DNA from: a virus
Reading direction: 5' to 3' (one strand)
Virus record (IMG/VR): IMGVR_UViG_2802428989_000001
Span: 1 to 64,000 of that record
Length of the DNA: 64,000 nt
The notes under the pieces are model-generated. The model saw only the letters and a list, made by a program, of their open reading frames with translations, was not told the origin of the DNA and searched no databases. The translations under genes and the position numbers were made by a program. Each line of letters begins with the position of its first letter. Position 1 is the first letter of the stretch. Below are positions 5,294 through 22,330 of the stretch, piece by piece.

Positions 5294-5335
5294 AAGGGCA
5301 TCACAACAACGACACCAACGAATGGAAGGAATGAG

Positions 5336-5443
5336 ATGTCATCCAAGGAAACGACTTTCGGTGACTACGCGTCCTGGCTGATGTTAGCCATGACCGGGCC
5401 GATCGTCGCGGCGGCGTACCTGATCCGAGTGGGGGCGTTCTGA
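5336..5443 (+). CDS. Small membrane protein (35 aa), not in the ORF track.
   Basis: RBS 'GGAAGGAATGAGATG'. Hydrophobic 'WLMLAMTGPIVAAAYLI'. The stop overlaps the next start (TGATG). GC-rich third positions. Confidence 0.35.
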   Translation: MSSKETTFGDYASWLMLAMTGPIVAAAYLIRVGAF

Positions 5444-5766
5444 TGGACACCAACTACCCGACGTACCCCAGCGGCACCATCGCGTACTGGGTATGCCCAC
5501 GCAACGACAATCATGTCTCGGTGCTGCTGCGCGACGCCAACGGCTGGAACCTATCCGGCGTCGCTGAGCATGGCAATTTCACCATGTTCATGGAGCCGCT
5601 GAAGTTGGGGCTTGCGCTGTTGACGGGTCATTCGATTCCGGTCATCAGCGACCAGGACTTCCACGAACTCCAGCAGGGACCCAAGCCGATGGTCGTGACC
5701 ATCGTGCACATTCCCACCGCGCCGTTGGTCACCGACGAGGACGAAGAGGTGGCCGACCATGCGTGA
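5443..5766 (+). CDS. Hypothetical protein (paralog of 5759..6307).
   Basis: 'CPRNDNHVSVLLRDANGW' resembles 'CPDNDNHAVFGLRAEDGW' in the next gene. Operon-style overlaps. Confidence 0.55.
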   Translation: MDTNYPTYPSGTIAYWVCPRNDNHVSVLLRDANGWNLSGVAEHGNFTMFMEPLKLGLALLTGHSIPVISDQDFHELQQGPKPMVVTIVHIPTAPLVTDEDEEVADHA

Positions 5767-6307
5767 GTATCCCATGGGCTCAATGGTGTTCACCATCTGC
5801 CCGGACAACGACAACCATGCAGTCTTCGGTCTGCGCGCCGAGGACGGCTGGTATCTCATGCAGGTCACCGAATCGAGCACGCTCAAGATCACCCAAGAGC
5901 CGTCCACCGACGAGGAGATAATGGGCGATCTGGATATGACGTGGATCGTCTGCCGTGACCCGTTGATGACGATCATCGGGCCGGACAAGACGAGGCCGGA
6001 TGAGTGTCCCAGTGGCAGCATCATTTTCAGCCGCATGGAGGATCATCCGTTCGCGATCGTCGCTGGCTTGAAAACGCTGGACGGCTGGGAATTTGCACGT
6101 ATCAACCCCGACGGCAAGTTTGAGGCGATGGCGTTCATCCATCACCTACTGACTCACCACCTGGGGATGAACGTCGGACTACCGCAGGACAGCAACGTGT
6201 TTGGCAGTGAAGACGTTGACCCGCGGTACGTGATCGGCGGTGACTGGACGATCGTCCACGTTCCTACGGTCGTCACCACCCCCGTATCGAAGGCGGCGGA
6301 GAACTGA
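5759..6307 (+). CDS. Hypothetical protein (paralog of 5443..5766, longer).
   Basis: Shared N-terminal motif with the previous gene. The start overlaps the previous stop. Confidence 0.55.
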   Translation: MREYPMGSMVFTICPDNDNHAVFGLRAEDGWYLMQVTESSTLKITQEPSTDEEIMGDLDMTWIVCRDPLMTIIGPDKTRPDECPSGSIIFSRMEDHPFAIVAGLKTLDGWEFARINPDGKFEAMAFIHHLLTHHLGMNVGLPQDSNVFGSEDVDPRYVIGGDWTIVHVPTVVTTPVSKAAEN

Positions 6308-6834
6308 TGGACCTGATCGTGGTGGACCTGGAGACCACAGGTCTTGACACCGATGTTCACTCGATCCTGGAGGTGGCGGCTGTCAATGTCGCCACCGGCC
6401 AGGAACTCTACTTCGTGCCCTACATCAAGCCTGATCAGATGATGATGGCCGACCCGGAAGCGCTGCGTATCAACAGGTATTACGAACGCGGTGTGTTCCG
6501 CAAGATGCTCAAGAGTCCCGACGACAACGTCCAAGCCTATCGCGAGCTGTTCGACATGCTGAAAGACAACAGGCTCGGCGGCGCTAACCCCCGTTTCGAC
6601 GCCGACATGCTGGTCAAAGCAACTGGCTACGCGGAGTCTTGGCACTATCGGCTGGCCGATGTGTGCGCGTACGTCAGCGGCGCTCTGGGATTCGACCCTA
6701 GCGACATTCGCGGCCTGCATGACATGTGCGTATCGCTATCGGTGGACACCGGCACTGAGCACAGCGCCCTAGACGACGCCAGGGCGACCGCAGCATGCTT
6801 CCGGGCCGCCGCACTGGGACCCCGGAGTCGATGA
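6307..6834 (+). CDS. DnaQ-like 3'-5' exonuclease (DEDDh family).
   Basis: Exo I 'VVDLETTGLD' and Exo III 'HSALDDARA'. Confidence 0.85.
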   Translation: MDLIVVDLETTGLDTDVHSILEVAAVNVATGQELYFVPYIKPDQMMMADPEALRINRYYERGVFRKMLKSPDDNVQAYRELFDMLKDNRLGGANPRFDADMLVKATGYAESWHYRLADVCAYVSGALGFDPSDIRGLHDMCVSLSVDTGTEHSALDDARATAACFRAAALGPRSR

Positions 6835-7247
6835 TGGGAAGGTTTAAAGAGTGGTTCGGCCAACTCGTGCAACAGCTTCCGTCGCAAGACGTGGAGGCGC
6901 GTGTCGAGGTCGACAACTGGCTGACTGCGGGCAACAACCTGATCGTGGAGGCCGGCGCGCAGGATCATCAGTTGTTCCTGCGCATGAACGGTAGTGACTG
7001 GCCGCTGCGATCGGGCACGTACGCCCTGGCGACTAGCCAGGGGCGGCGGCTGCTGCTGTCAACGCACTGGGACGAAGTTGACGACTGGGCGGTCTACGTC
7101 GGCACCGAGACGGTAGACCAGCACGACACACCCCCGGTGTGGGACGTGAAGTTCCGCATCGTCCCCTTTCACCGAGTTAGGGACCCACTGGTCATCATCG
7201 CCCTGGAGGACGGGGAGTTCCTGACGGACATTGAGGAGATCGCATGA
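6831..7247 (+). CDS. Hypothetical protein.
   Basis: ATG at 6831 overlaps the upstream stop (ATGA). GC-rich third positions. Confidence 0.55.
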   Translation: MMGRFKEWFGQLVQQLPSQDVEARVEVDNWLTAGNNLIVEAGAQDHQLFLRMNGSDWPLRSGTYALATSQGRRLLLSTHWDEVDDWAVYVGTETVDQHDTPPVWDVKFRIVPFHRVRDPLVIIALEDGEFLTDIEEIA

Positions 7248-20356: not shown

Positions 20357-20600
20357 AGAATTCGAGGCGGCCTACGAGGGTCACTGTTTCGACTGCGGCG
20401 AGATTATCGCAGTCGGTCAGCACGTCGTCTATGACGATGACGGCGATCTGGTGCATGCCGGGTGTTACAACGACCCAACGTCCTTCGACCCCAGCGGCGA
20501 TGACGAGGTGCGCCCCGTCAAGTTTGTCGAGGTTAAAGAGCGCGCCGACCGAAAACCCTGCGAGTCCTGCCATCTAGTCCATGCCGGTGAGTGTTTCTGA
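20346..20600 (+). CDS. Small Cys-rich protein.
   Basis: 'CFDCGE...HAGCYND...CESCHLVHAGEC'. Confidence 0.45.
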   Translation: MPSREFEAAYEGHCFDCGEIIAVGQHVVYDDDGDLVHAGCYNDPTSFDPSGDDEVRPVKFVEVKERADRKPCESCHLVHAGECF

Positions 20601-20965
20601 TGACCGATCAAGACGTACTGGAGGCCCTGGAGTTCACACCCGATCACGGGCCTTGTGAGTGCGTCAAATGCGGGCTGAACGAAGACCAGCCTGAGCACGA
20701 GGGTAGGTGCGGTAAGCCAGCCAAGTATCGCGCCGAGATGCACATGATCGACAAGTGCAACCAGCCGGGGCTTACCCCAAATGGCGGGACGATCTTCTTC
20801 GTCTGTGAGCGCTGCATGCTGATCGGCGAGCGCGTCGCGGCGCGGATAGCTGCCGCCAATCAACGGCTGATCAAGGAACGCGACTTCGTGATGATGTGCA
20901 CCACATGTCAACGGCCACTCAATGATCCACACAACATCATGGAGGTTGAACCACTCGATGAGTGA
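20600..20965 (+). CDS. Cys-rich zinc-finger-like protein.
   Basis: 'CECVKCG...CGK...CERC...CTTCQ'. Confidence 0.5.
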   Translation: MTDQDVLEALEFTPDHGPCECVKCGLNEDQPEHEGRCGKPAKYRAEMHMIDKCNQPGLTPNGGTIFFVCERCMLIGERVAARIAAANQRLIKERDFVMMCTTCQRPLNDPHNIMEVEPLDE

Positions 20966-21869
20966 GATACGCCGATGCAGGGCTGGCCGACTGTGCGACG
21001 GCTACGAAGTAGTCGCCGGGCAGCGTCGTGCCGCCGAAGTGAACGGCGACGCTCATCTATGCGAGGCGTGCCAGCTCAAGACGCGAAAACTGATCCGCCG
21101 CATGCCCAATGACTGGTGCAAGCTGAAACTGACGATCGGGGAGAAGCGAGCGCGCGGCCAGACCGAGGAAATCAGCCGCAGACCCAAACCCGGATCAAAG
21201 GTACTGATCAACGTGGACACCGCCGAGCTGATGAGCGAGATCGTCGATGTCTGCGATCGCTCTACACGGCTGGCACTAGGCAGGGGTGAGCGCAAGCGCT
21301 CCCGTGGTGACGTGGTGATCGGACAGTCATCGGCCGACAGATACGACTTCCAGGTGGTGCTCAAAGCCGTTGACGTGGTGACAAAGAACATCGACGTGCT
21401 GGCGTCCTCGCAAGAGGGAACCATGTTGGCTCTCAAGGTGTTCGACCTCGGCTATCGCGTCCGCCGACATCTCGGCGAGACACTGTACCGAGAGAAGCAA
21501 CACCTACCCTGCCCCGTGTGCGGCGAGCTAGCGCTAGTCAAGGAGGTGCAGGACAAACGTCAAAGCGTCAGCTCAGCCAACCAAGAGGAGATCACGCCAG
21601 AGGTCATCCGCTGCCTGGCGTGCAACGGTGGGCCCAACCAGGACGGCACATGGACGGAGGCTGAGTATAAGTGGCTCCAGTCGATGGTTCTCACAGATCA
21701 GGAGGAGCACGAGATGCTGAAATGGCTACTTGCGGAGGCGGAATGGCAGCGCGACGTATGCGCCTGGCTGGCCGCCGAACGGCAGTGGTACCTAGAGCTG
21801 GCGTGCGCCACCACCGGCATGCCGTGGGGACACTTCCTGACCGCGCTGGAGGGTACGGCCGACCGATGA
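20958..21869 (+). CDS. Hypothetical protein with Cys-pair zinc-ribbon motifs.
   Basis: 'CEACQ', 'CPVCGE', 'CLACNGG'. ATG 20958 overlaps the previous gene. Confidence 0.5.
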   Translation: MSEIRRCRAGRLCDGYEVVAGQRRAAEVNGDAHLCEACQLKTRKLIRRMPNDWCKLKLTIGEKRARGQTEEISRRPKPGSKVLINVDTAELMSEIVDVCDRSTRLALGRGERKRSRGDVVIGQSSADRYDFQVVLKAVDVVTKNIDVLASSQEGTMLALKVFDLGYRVRRHLGETLYREKQHLPCPVCGELALVKEVQDKRQSVSSANQEEITPEVIRCLACNGGPNQDGTWTEAEYKWLQSMVLTDQEEHEMLKWLLAEAEWQRDVCAWLAAERQWYLELACATTGMPWGHFLTALEGTADR

Positions 21870-22240
21870 GCACCAACGTCCACGTCTACCGAGAATCGCG
21901 CGAGGTTAGGAACAAGCGCATCGCGATCATCGCGATCGACCTACTGACGCGAGTGGTCGCTGGTGACATCGAGGACCCAGCCGCGGCGCTCGCGCGATTC
22001 CATCAGGCACGCGTTGATGAGCACGTGTACTGGACGCAGCCGAGCATGATGCCGTACGACCCTGATCAGTGGTTGACGGCCAATGAGATGGCCGAGATCG
22101 CTGACGTGCTGCCTAGCACGGTTCAGCAATGGAACTACCGCGGTTACATTACAAGTTCCGAGGCGCACGACGGAACCAAGCTGTACAACGTCGGCGAGGT
22201 GAATCGCTACCTCGCACGCAGGCGACCACGCGAAGCCTGA
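21866..22240 (+). CDS. HTH DNA-binding protein (MerR/Xis-like).
   Basis: 'LTANEMAEIADVLPSTVQQWNYRGYI'. Confidence 0.5.
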   Translation: MSTNVHVYRESREVRNKRIAIIAIDLLTRVVAGDIEDPAAALARFHQARVDEHVYWTQPSMMPYDPDQWLTANEMAEIADVLPSTVQQWNYRGYITSSEAHDGTKLYNVGEVNRYLARRRPREA

Positions 22241-22330
22241 TCTATACTGATCAGGCACCTTTCCGCAAAGGTGTCGTTGTTGTGATGGACGAAGGCCCTC
22301 GGACCCCTCCGGGGGCCTTCGTTGCGTTTC
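22236..22330 (+). terminator. Cluster of three hairpins ending in a strong rho-independent terminator.
   Basis: CCTGATC/GATCAGG at 22236-22255. CACCTT/AAGGTG at 22257-22273. A 12-bp GC stem GAAGGCCCTCGG/CCGGGGGCCTTC at 22291-22320, followed by GTTGCGTTTC. Confidence 0.7.

Follow-up and report, generated by a model that had tools for sequence, protein, structure and literature searches.

The early genes of prophiFSAT01-1, a prophage of Mycobacterium abscessus that belongs to cluster MabR and is close to McProf, carry in their leaders a recurrent C/A-rich, G-poor and ACA-rich element, (A/C)AUCACAACAAC, with ATCACAAC(AAC) as its core k-mer. In the window (the whole stretch of 64,000 nt analysed here), the motif is confined to early or non-structural genes in a single orientation, and its only reverse copy lies in a unit that resembles a small RNA, so that the phage may switch early genes off or on by pairing. 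We consider it quite possible, if somewhat short of an even chance, that these ACA-rich elements have a role in initiating translation and are paired by a phage RNA of about 75-80 nt, following a logic like that of GcvB. The two papers on MabR mention neither the C/A leader motif nor an RNA at 22253-22336; the listing from RNA-seq of the McProf lysogen is restricted to expressed genes.

Results

A C/A-rich motif in the leaders of early genes

The first-pass annotation had described a recurrent leader motif near start codons, and all six sites that it listed were found in place (Table 1). Its list lacked the sense copy at gene 91 and a partial copy at gene 21. The copy at 14027 lies within the 3' end of gene 26, and the annotated start of the gene after it, gene 27, is 14057, not 14054.

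Table 1. Copies of the C/A motif and associated elements in the window.
Feature	Position	Strand	Context
Leader motif CATCACAACAACGACACC	5299..5316	+	42-nt gap before gene 8; 13 nt to SD GGAAGG
Variant AATCAACAACAAC	9163..9175	+	Overlaps gene 15 stop; 35-nt gap before gene 16
Partial copy ACAACTGACACAACAAG	11878..11894	+	Before gene 21 (ATG 11916); 178-nt gap, long hairpin upstream
Exact copy CATCACAACAACACAAC	14027..14043	+	Within gene 26 3' end; 5 nt to SD GGAAGG of gene 27
Second motif ATCAACTACCAGG	14794-14806	+	Precedes gene 28 copy AATCACAACAAC
AATCACAACAAC	14819..14830	+	55-nt gap before gene 28 (ATG 14847)
AATCACAACACA	17317..17328	+	53-nt gap before gene 36 (ATG 17342)
-10-like TANNNT hexamer in TATACTGATCAG (TATACT)	22243..22254	+	Directly after gene 44 stop
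Hairpin 1	22254..22275	+	9 bp, loop CCGC
Antisense copy GUUGUUGUGAUGG, candidate seed	22276..22288	+	Between hairpin 1 and terminator hairpin
Terminator hairpin (candidate)	22284..22331 (core 22289-22322)	+	16-20 bp, loop ACCC, G/U-rich tail
Sense copy AATCACAACGACGAC	62724..62738	-	Gene 91 5' leader; 11 nt to SD AAGGAGG
Promoter-like module TACACTGATCAG + hairpin GACACCGAAAGGTGTC	62739..62767	-	Directly upstream of gene 91 motif

Of all k-mers in the 45 nt before the start of each of 93 tested genes, ATCACAAC(AAC) recurs most widely. An unbiased count over these leaders ranked ATCACAAC, ATCACAACA and ATCACAACAA top at k = 8, 9 and 10, and at most 1 in 1000 within-leader shuffles reached the observed top value at each length, the comparison with shuffled controls that the first-pass annotation had proposed. 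Enrichment was weaker against non-overlapping coding windows (p = 0.03, 0.015 and 0.09, respectively). On both strands of the 64 kb, ATCACAAC has eight matches; one is antisense and five fall in sense leader zones (sense -45 to -1, which cover 3.3% of both strands together; binomial P about 2e-6). The 12-mer CATCACAACAAC gave 11 matches with at most two mismatches, against 5.1 +/- 2.3 expected. It is exact at 5299 (+), 14027 (+) and 22276 (-), differs at one position from the 14819 copy AATCACAACAAC, and has looser variants at 9163-9175 (AATCAACAACAAC) and 17317-17328 (AATCACAACACA). The first and last copies on the earlier list are, as had been claimed, identical over 18 nt: read in reverse complement, 22271-22288 gives the sequence of 5299-5316 (CATCACAACAACGACACC).

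Genes 4-44, the early lytic operon, form successive blocks within which translation is coupled, and a gene located after a true intergenic gap therefore needs de novo ribosome loading. The motif heads the uncoupled blocks that begin with genes 8, 16, 27, 28 and 36, and a weaker copy precedes gene 21; every early-operon gap of at least 35 nt contains it except that between genes 19 and 20, the gene 21 copy being only partial. All five ATCACAAC leader copies are in sense orientation with the start codon 20-37 nt downstream, and 4-13 nt separate the 3' end of the motif from the Shine-Dalgarno (SD) sequence (at gene 27, 0 nt if ACAAC is taken as an extension of the motif). None of 11 late-operon leaders contains the motif. 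Early block heads have 2.7 ACA trinucleotides per 32-nt leader, late heads 0.18 and coupled genes 0.41 (p 8e-4 and 3e-5 for the two comparisons).

The motif was compared among five MabR genomes (FSAT, McProf, FSIL, FVLQ and FSQJ), of which FSQJ01-1 is the most diverged. Gene 8, encoding a small membrane protein (ATG 5336), has an identical motif in McProf, FSIL and FVLQ; that of gene 16, encoding a Band-7-like protein (ATG 9200), reads AATCACAGCAAC, AACCACAACAAC or AGTCACAACAAC in the relatives, and the gene 91 leader carries AATCACAACAACGAC in FVLQ and FSQJ. Non-orthologous junctions also have the motif, namely gene 27 (ATG 14057) in the FSAT-specific module of genes 25-27, and gene 25 of FSQJ; the homologue of the latter in FSAT, gene 24, lacks the motif and is translationally coupled. 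Orthologous copies differ by nine substitutions, eight of them transitions and seven A>G or C>U, changes by which ACA is lost and wobble pairing to the G/U seed is retained; this bias is marginal (p about 0.04-0.09).

TAYACTGATCAG is present in exactly two copies in the 64 kb, each followed by a GACACC/GGUGUC-type hairpin and then by the motif, sense at gene 91 and antisense at 22276. At gene 91 the promoter-like module lies in a 72-bp divergent gap, after a GGTAGAC..GTCTACC palindrome, and the promoter of this gene would be expected in the same gap.

The reverse copy in a predicted hairpin-seed-terminator unit

The reverse copy does lie in the terminator cluster where it had been reported, between hairpin 1 and the terminator hairpin. 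The predicted fold of 22253-22336 is a hairpin, a single-stranded seed and a terminator (-46 kcal/mol, z = -4). The first 4-5 nt of GUUGUUGUGAUGG are fully unpaired in this prediction and GAUGG pairs in part within a lengthened terminator stem, so that only some 5-8 nucleotides of the seed remain free. The 3' strand of hairpin 1, GGUGUC, adds further complementarity with the leader of gene 8, and the GACACC extension common to both shows no co-variation in FSQJ.

All 13 seed bases are identical across the five MabR genomes. The FSQJ homologue has the same predicted fold (z = -6.5), although its terminator loop matches at only 3/8 positions; its hairpin 1 matches at 7/22 aligned positions, yet folds as an 8-bp hairpin. 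In the closely related group the unit shows two differences, one in the terminator loop and the other at a stem position where wobble pairing is possible. Only two independent lineages (FSAT-like and FSQJ-like) have the unit, which makes statistics on its conservation and covariation weak. The distant relatives L015 and L016, with an HTH protein about 50% identical, have TTACACT or TATACT within an inverted repeat downstream of the gene for this protein, and lack both C/A leaders and the hairpin-seed-terminator unit.

The -10-like hexamer in TATACTGATCAG sits within the inverted repeat CCTGATC/GATCAGG and reads TACACT in FSQJ. From this hexamer and by analogy, we infer that it could be the promoter of the candidate small RNA; a sigma-70 consensus scan gave no promoter at the start of this RNA. 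The terminator hairpin is a candidate end for both the early operon and the small RNA. Its stem is strong and is a generic palindrome, common in actinobacterial genomes, its tail UUGCGUUUC is partly U-rich, and a simple terminator scan flagged hairpin 1, not the hairpin at 22284..22331. Hairpin 1 followed by GUUGUUGU had a weak terminator score, so that the G/U tract could merely serve termination. Downstream of the terminator, a second -10-like element, TATCAT (22377-22382), may drive the late genes.

Predicted pairing and proposed mechanism

Accessibility-aware cofolding of the 80-nt RNA with the 93 leaders ranked genes 91, 16 and 8 at the top, gene 36 6th and gene 28 9th; gene 27, with an exact 12-mer, came 31st of 93. 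A plain duplex-energy scan did not discriminate, because G:U pairing yields many matches in coding regions.

In the mechanism that we propose, the leader element would be an unstructured translation-enhancing or ribosome-standby site in the mRNA and would double as the pairing target of an RNA of about 75-80 nt from between the early and late operons. This RNA would comprise the -10-like TATACT, a 5' hairpin, the single-stranded G/U-rich seed GUUGUUGUGAUGG and an intrinsic terminator, and might arise from its own promoter or be freed from the early transcript at its 3' end. By pairing, it would cover the enhancer, trigger cleavage, or both, and could thereby coordinate post-transcriptional control of the block-head genes 8, 16, 27, 28, 36 and perhaps 21 together with gene 91 in the right arm, repression being the likelier direction. 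The analysis shows the motif with its placement and statistics, the predicted fold and the conserved seed of the unit, and the duplicated promoter-hairpin module; that the small RNA is transcribed and pairs in vivo, and in which direction and at what time it acts, is what we infer from these. Translational enhancer and small-RNA target, both suggested by the first-pass annotation, each fit the evidence, and they are probably two sides of a single system, since the reverse copy sits in the hairpin-seed-terminator unit.

Discussion

In a rival reading, which we consider unlikely, the C/A leaders are simply unstructured enhancers or standby sites for genes without coupling and have no RNA partner. 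The reverse copy would then be a relic of an inverted promoter-leader duplication, now a G/U tract with a terminator hairpin on either side. The motif lies before the SD at variable spacing, is depleted of G and enriched in ACA, all of which agrees with this, and ACA motifs by themselves enhance translation (PMC3879156). Hairpin 1 with GTTGTTGTGA is terminator-like by score, and the promoter-hairpin module is clearly duplicated, which makes a duplication origin of the reverse copy plausible. However, late-operon block heads also initiate de novo, yet have no motif; 13 of 13 seed bases are kept despite the diverged flanking hairpin and loop, a constraint that a plain U-rich tract does not need; and the leader substitutions lose ACA while retaining wobble pairing.

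The lone reverse copy between hairpin and terminator is left unexplained if the motif is a binding site for a phage or host protein, either on mRNA, like the sites of T4 RegA, a translational repressor of many early messages, or on DNA, like the stoperators of Cluster A phages such as L5, asymmetric sites that recur many times between closely spaced genes and all point the same way. The MabR motif shares these stoperator features, its asymmetric copies being numerous, confined to short intergenic regions and uniformly oriented with respect to transcription, and the phage encodes several HTH proteins (gp13, gp44, gp87). No candidate RNA-binding protein was identified, however, and the C/A motif has no copy in the immunity and early-promoter region (2366-2653), whereas another motif, ATCAACTACCAGG, resembles the operator-like repeats CTAGTAGTTGAT there and is the better stoperator candidate. 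Even though the authors of the Cluster K study left the partner of the start-associated sequence (SAS), RNA or protein, undecided (PMC3203893), we give a protein site only a small chance. Still less probable, and very unlikely in our view, are RNase E-type cleavage sites that split the early mRNA or module-boundary homologies for mosaic exchange. Copies do lie exactly at block or module borders, including the FSAT genes 25-27 insertion and the FSQJ non-orthologous junction. Where RNA is unstructured, the mycobacterial RNase E cleaves preferentially on the 5' side of C, a preference that fits C/A tracts. Neither role explains the conserved antisense copy in a structured unit or the confinement to leaders 20-37 nt before starts, and a common sequence of just 11-18 nt is short for homologous exchange.

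Among known systems, control by a pairing small RNA is closest to GcvB, an sRNA that uses a G/U-rich region to silence translational enhancers, rich in ACA or C/A, located before the SD (PMC3879156); a base-pairing sRNA, B11, is functional in M. abscessus (PMC10470900). The candidate RNA resembles GcvB in a G/U-rich single-stranded region complementary to C/A-rich elements in or upstream of many ribosome-binding sites, in a target core (CACAACA/ACAACAAC) of the same type as the GcvB ACA targets, in its multiple C/A-rich mRNA targets (here six to seven leaders) and, as predicted in two lineages, in a G/U seed flanked by hairpins, with its 3' part partly paired, and an intrinsic terminator. In enterobacteria GcvB represses its targets by pairing and is Hfq-dependent, whereas the candidate RNA is likened to it by predicted fold only, is encoded by a phage of an actinobacterial host, and has the phage's own early genes as predicted targets. 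To our knowledge, this host has no Hfq. A GcvB homologue was rejected for want of sequence or structure homology: Rfam gave no match at gathering score in the window, and none to GcvB (RF00022) at E <= 10 in 22150-22480.

The c4 RNA of P1 and P7, about 77 nt long, is a phage antisense RNA; its loops pair with short sites that are repeated over a phage ribosome-binding region. It would share with the MabR candidate a similar size, repeated short targets and control of early functions, but it acts on two sites in one leader downstream on its own transcript (icd-ant), whereas MabR has six to seven leaders over 17 kb and one in the other arm, with the putative targets upstream of the SD. In lambda, PR'-6S RNA-tR' places a promoter and then a strong terminator before the late genes. 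The MabR region is arranged likewise, with the putative promoter and the candidate terminator within about 80 nt, and would yield a short RNA ending at the terminator wherever readthrough does not occur. Unlike in lambda, no Q-like antiterminator was identified in prophiFSAT01-1; we know of no trans target of lambda 6S RNA. A stoperator of the Cluster A type was rejected on operator sharing (0 C/A-motif copies in 2366-2653).

The resemblance to SAS that the first-pass annotation had noted extends to association with starts in one orientation, but not to consensus or position. Membership of the Cluster K SAS family was rejected, GGGATAGGAGCCC having 0 matches with at most two mismatches in the whole window. 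SAS, the 13-bp GGGATAGGAGCCC, contains the SD (AGGAG) and overlaps it 3-7 nt before the start codon (PMC3203893), whereas the MabR motif is C/A-rich, has no sequence in common with SAS and is placed before the SD. Inverted repeats of 17 bp like those of ESAS were not seen. Both are asymmetric repeats at the starts of non-structural genes after gaps, in one orientation, and both have a lone reverse copy away from gene starts (PMC3203893 for SAS), that of MabR lying at 22276-22288. In the right arm of Anaya (Cluster K), SAS occurs 16 times on the + strand and once in reverse, and the single reverse SAS lies in a conserved hairpin loop. Whether one kind of phage antisense RNA, with the reverse repeat in an exposed loop or linker, operates both the MabR C/A motif and the Cluster K SAS, whose function has been open since 2011, is rather doubtful, though not far-fetched. 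If this is true, a single small RNA would switch the translation of an entire temporal gene class.

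Genome and early-operon placement of the leader element

At 100% identity, the window matches Mycobacterium phage prophiFSAT01-1 (BK061308.1; record coordinate minus 217 gives window coordinate), a Mycobacteroides abscessus prophage of cluster MabR, hereafter FSAT. Its only relatives among phage records are McProf, prophiFSIL01-1 (FSIL), prophiFVLQ01-1 (FVLQ) and prophiFSQJ01-1 (FSQJ), the last being the most diverged. A viral-contig search with gp44 returned near-identical MabR prophages only, and the compared sequences L011 and L012 are duplicates of the FVLQ and FSQJ haplotypes.

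The first-pass annotation had described a recurrent C/A-rich motif upstream of early start codons. Every site that it listed is present in the window, but the list was incomplete, since a copy in the gene 91 leader and a partial copy before gene 21 had been overlooked. The copy at 14027 also exists, but the start codon assigned to it was misplaced: the annotated start is at 14057, and the copy lies inside the end of gene 26. The 18-nt identity noted between the first and last copies is real, 5299–5316 being the reverse complement of 22271–22288. This 18-bp inverted repeat was considered as a DNA inversion site and rejected, because FSQJ lacks the gene 8 copy but retains the antisense unit described below.

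Coordinates of the genome regions, motif copies and antisense-unit elements
Feature	Position (strand)	Remark
Early operon	genes 4–44	rightward
Late genes	gene 45 onward	
Right arm	genes 82–99	kinds of gene expressed in lysogeny (PMC8191103)
CATCACAACAAC, exact	5299 (+), 14027 (+), 22276 (−)	
CATCACAACAAC, one mismatch	14819	
AATCAACAACAAC, looser variant	9163–9175	
AATCACAACACA, looser variant	17317–17328	
AATCACAACGACGAC	62724–62738	leader of minus-strand gene 91
Partial copy	11878–11894	before gene 21
TATACT	22243–22248	within inverted repeat CCTGATC/GATCAGG
Hairpin 1, 9 bp	22254–22275	
Candidate seed GUUGUUGUGAUGG	22276–22288	reverse motif copy
Predicted terminator hairpin, 16–20 bp, G+C-rich	core 22289–22322	G/U-rich tail

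With up to two mismatches, the 12-mer matched 11 times, against 5.1 ± 2.3 in shuffles. ATCACAAC occurs eight times on both strands; five of these copies fall between −45 and −1 of a gene in sense orientation, a space covering 3.3% of both strands together (binomial P 2e-6), and one further copy, the sixth, is the antisense copy. When all k-mers over 93 leaders were counted without reference to the motif, ATCACAAC, ATCACAACA and ATCACAACAA ranked at the top. The enrichment over shuffled controls on which the motif claim depended was thus borne out, the observed k-mer value being reached in at most 1 of 1000 within-leader shuffles; enrichment was weaker against non-overlapping coding windows (p = 0.03, 0.015 and 0.09).

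Nearly all early genes overlap a neighbour by 1–17 nt and are therefore translationally coupled; genes 36 and 37 are 3 nt apart. Gaps of at least 35 nt occur only before genes 8, 16, 20, 21, 28 and 36. Five of these six block heads carry the motif, only partially in the case of gene 21, and the gene 20 leader has a different motif. The element is also found upstream of gene 27, inside a three-gene FSAT-specific module. [quoted passage not shown] The motif is absent from all 11 late-operon block heads, and the mean number of ACA trinucleotides between −40 and −8 is 2.7 for early heads, 0.18 for late heads and 0.41 for coupled genes. In FSQJ, gene 25 follows a 91-nt gap and is preceded by the motif CATCACAACAA, whereas its FSAT homologue, gene 24, is coupled and lacks it. 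Placement, ACA counts and this contrast indicate that the element is associated with early genes needing their own initiation, not with particular gene families.

Other features were observed in the early gaps. At the position of FSAT gene 28, FSQJ has an unannotated 17-codon ORF, MVQKRTLKWWAKRIRVR, behind a C/A-rich leader in a 196-nt gap (15538–15733 of L006/L007), with ATCAACCACTAGAC...AAACAACAAC upstream of its start. Genes 20 and 21 are separated by 178 nt (11738–11915) that contain a long G+C-rich inverted repeat, GGCGCGCCCCGCGCC ... GGGGCGGGGCGCGCC, which may be an internal terminator, an attenuator or an origin-like structure; in McProf, FVLQ and FSQJ the G+C-rich repeats of the equivalent gap differ in sequence. 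A second intergenic motif, ATCAACTACCAGG, occurs exactly on the plus strand at 11243–11255, 14794–14806 and 22340–22352, and with up to three mismatches gives 34 matches against 9.9 expected. Related copies lie at 2899, 55662 and 58912 (compare 2572–2584 on the minus strand). Its reverse complement shares 11 of 12 positions with an operator-like repeat of the repressor/cro region, CTAGTAGTTGAT, and CTAGTAG is found five times in that region (2366–2653). By their sequence, the ATCAACTACCAGG copies may be stoperator-like repressor sites within the early operon.

The antisense unit between genes 44 and 45

Gene 44, for an HTH protein, and gene 45, for a glycosyltransferase, are 198 nt apart, and the reverse motif copy lies in between: the stop codon is followed by TATACT, a 9-bp hairpin, GUUGUUGUGAUGG, a G+C-rich hairpin and a G/U-rich tail. 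An 84-nt stretch has a predicted fold of −46.3 kcal/mol (z = −4.05), in which the seed is partly occluded and its first bases are unpaired. The same architecture is predicted for the FSQJ homologue (z = −6.5). Between FSAT and FSQJ, the only two independent lineages that carry the unit, identity is 7/22 in hairpin 1, where the fold is kept, 13/13 in the seed, 11/13 in the 5′ terminator stem and 3/8 in the terminator loop. Among the four closely related genomes the unit differs twice: one change is at a stem position where wobble pairing is possible, the other in the loop of the terminator.

No Rfam family matched the unit. When the 87-nt unit was searched by BLAST in 50,697 phage records, it was found in the five MabR genomes only, the remaining hits being generic terminator palindromes. 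Scanning genome contigs for the terminator stem, as CGAAGGCCCTC..GGGGGCCTTCG, gave over 120 unrelated terminators of actinobacteria and yielded no informative relative. Two coding explanations for the region were rejected. For a minus-strand gene led by the reverse copy there is no annotated or plausible start, GGAAAGGTG gives no room for SD spacing, and gene 44 lies antisense to the region; the small plus-strand ORF that the FSIL and FVLQ annotations place downstream lacks a start codon in FSAT.

Two more distant sequences, L015 and L016, were identified from their HTH proteins, homologues of gp44 at about 50% identity. Both have TAYACT in an inverted repeat after the HTH gene, leading directly into the glycosyltransferase gene; the hairpin-seed-terminator unit and the C/A leaders are both missing, and no intermediate forms usable for covariation tests were found among such relatives. 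In the light of this arrangement the RNA could alternatively be viewed as a leader that starts at a conserved promoter on the early/late boundary and is then terminated, or as the early transcript's 3′ end.

The gene 45 leader 3′ of the terminator (22353–22438) is highly conserved between FSAT and FSQJ. It contains ACACGTCGTA, CTGACAGA and AAAATCAGGTCCAGGCC, a second −10-like element (TATCAT/TACACT, 22377–22382) and, at its 3′ end, a hairpin, GCCUUCCGUCGGAGGC, sequestering the gene 45 SD (GGAGG). TCAGGTCC, from the same leader, recurs in gaps 20–21 and 61–62.

A related module at gene 91

TAYACTGATCAG has exactly two copies in the 64 kb, at 22243 (+) and 62756 (−). The latter lies inside the 72 bp that separate the divergent genes 91 and 92, the expected site of the gene 91 promoter. 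A GGTAGAC..GTCTACC palindrome stands before it, and after it come a hairpin, GACACCGAAAGGUGUC, the sense motif, a strong SD and the start codon. Behind gene 44, the other copy leads into a related hairpin and from there into the antisense motif and the terminator. This duplication supports, by analogy only, independent transcription of a 75–80-nt RNA from a putative promoter.

The palindrome GGTAGA(C/G)N4(G/T)TCTACC is present at the promoters of genes 85/86, 89 and 91 (58832–58924, 60711–60730 and 62768–62795) and probably serves as operator for a right-arm regulator, possibly gp87, an HTH protein. In the FVLQ homologue of gene 91 (L014, 860–1000) the long form is stopped at codon 3 (ATG GTT TGA); the annotated start is 21 nt downstream, and the strong SD and C/A leader are still conserved.

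Pairing predictions and interpretation

Accessibility-aware cofolding of the 80-nt RNA with the −60 to +20 regions of 93 genes gave a median binding ΔΔG of −4.5 kcal/mol (sd 3.5). The best values were those of genes 91 (−19.4), 16 (−17.2) and 8 (−14.1 kcal/mol); genes 36 and 28 ranked 6th and 9th, and gene 27 only 31st. A duplex-energy scan, in which the 16-nt seed was set against all 24-nt windows of the two strands, gave no discrimination, because G:U pairing matches the G/U seed to many GC-rich coding stretches. In orthologous motif copies from the five genomes, eight of nine substitutions are transitions (baseline fraction 0.55), and seven of nine are A>G or C>U, which keep wobble pairing with the seed and destroy ACA; this bias toward kept pairing (p about 0.04–0.09) is suggestive only.

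The first-pass annotation had offered a translational enhancer, a protein-binding site or a small-RNA target as functions, and both the enhancer and the small-RNA-target options are supported by sequence evidence. We tentatively favour, at somewhat less than even confidence, a two-part system in which the ACA-rich leader elements would promote initiation and would also be targets of the small RNA's G/U seed. Base-pairing small RNAs are active in M. abscessus (PMC10470900). The leaders might instead act only as enhancers, with the reverse copy a non-functional relic; this shares the evidence from leader placement and is set against the unchanged seed of FSQJ, and we consider it unlikely. That the motif is a protein-binding site, on RNA or DNA, appears less probable again, and a role as processing or recombination signals very improbable.

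Neither the motif nor an RNA at this locus is described in the two MabR papers. A real pairing would, to our knowledge, make this the first small RNA of a mycobacteriophage whose targets are defined, and would show a temperate phage of a drug-resistant pathogen coordinating or shutting off early-gene translation. Possible applications are a portable translation-initiation module, made from the leader element, and, made from the small RNA, a multi-gene knock-down tool for engineering therapeutic M. abscessus phages.

Comparison with GcvB and Cluster K start-associated sequences

If the pairing holds, the MabR system would be a phage counterpart of the GcvB/ACA-enhancer circuit that works without Hfq, which the host is not known to possess. 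The closest working analogue of the proposed system is GcvB itself: with a G/U-rich region it silences enhancers that are ACA- and C/A-rich and lie 5′ of the SD (PMC3879156). It has no homology with the candidate RNA.

The start-associated sequences (SAS) of Cluster K mycobacteriophages, GGGATAGGAGCCC, lie at the ribosome-binding site, 3–7 nt from the start (PMC3203893). The resemblance to them that had been suggested does not extend to family membership, the SAS consensus being absent from the window; the logic is common, whereas sequence and position differ. In the right arm of phage Anaya, 16 of 16 SAS are on the plus strand. The lone reverse SAS (record 59,870–59,882) falls within the 385 nt of non-coding sequence that separate gp96 from gp97, and on the transcribed strand forms the 10-nt loop, CCUCCUAUCC, of a strong predicted hairpin (z = −4.6). 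Conservation of this region (JF704106, record 59,789–59,909; L137, 31790–31910) extends to 133 Cluster K phages, and compensatory changes occur in the stem (alignment A4). DarthP keeps the SAS consensus, yet its hairpin loop is CCCUCCUUCCCCU. The modelled hairpin is a candidate anti-SAS or anti-SD small RNA, and the parallel suggests that a repeat whose one antisense copy sits in a structured non-coding RNA may represent a general design. The MabR system offers a concrete, testable hypothesis for the partner of the Cluster K SAS ("RNA or protein"), a question dating from 2011.
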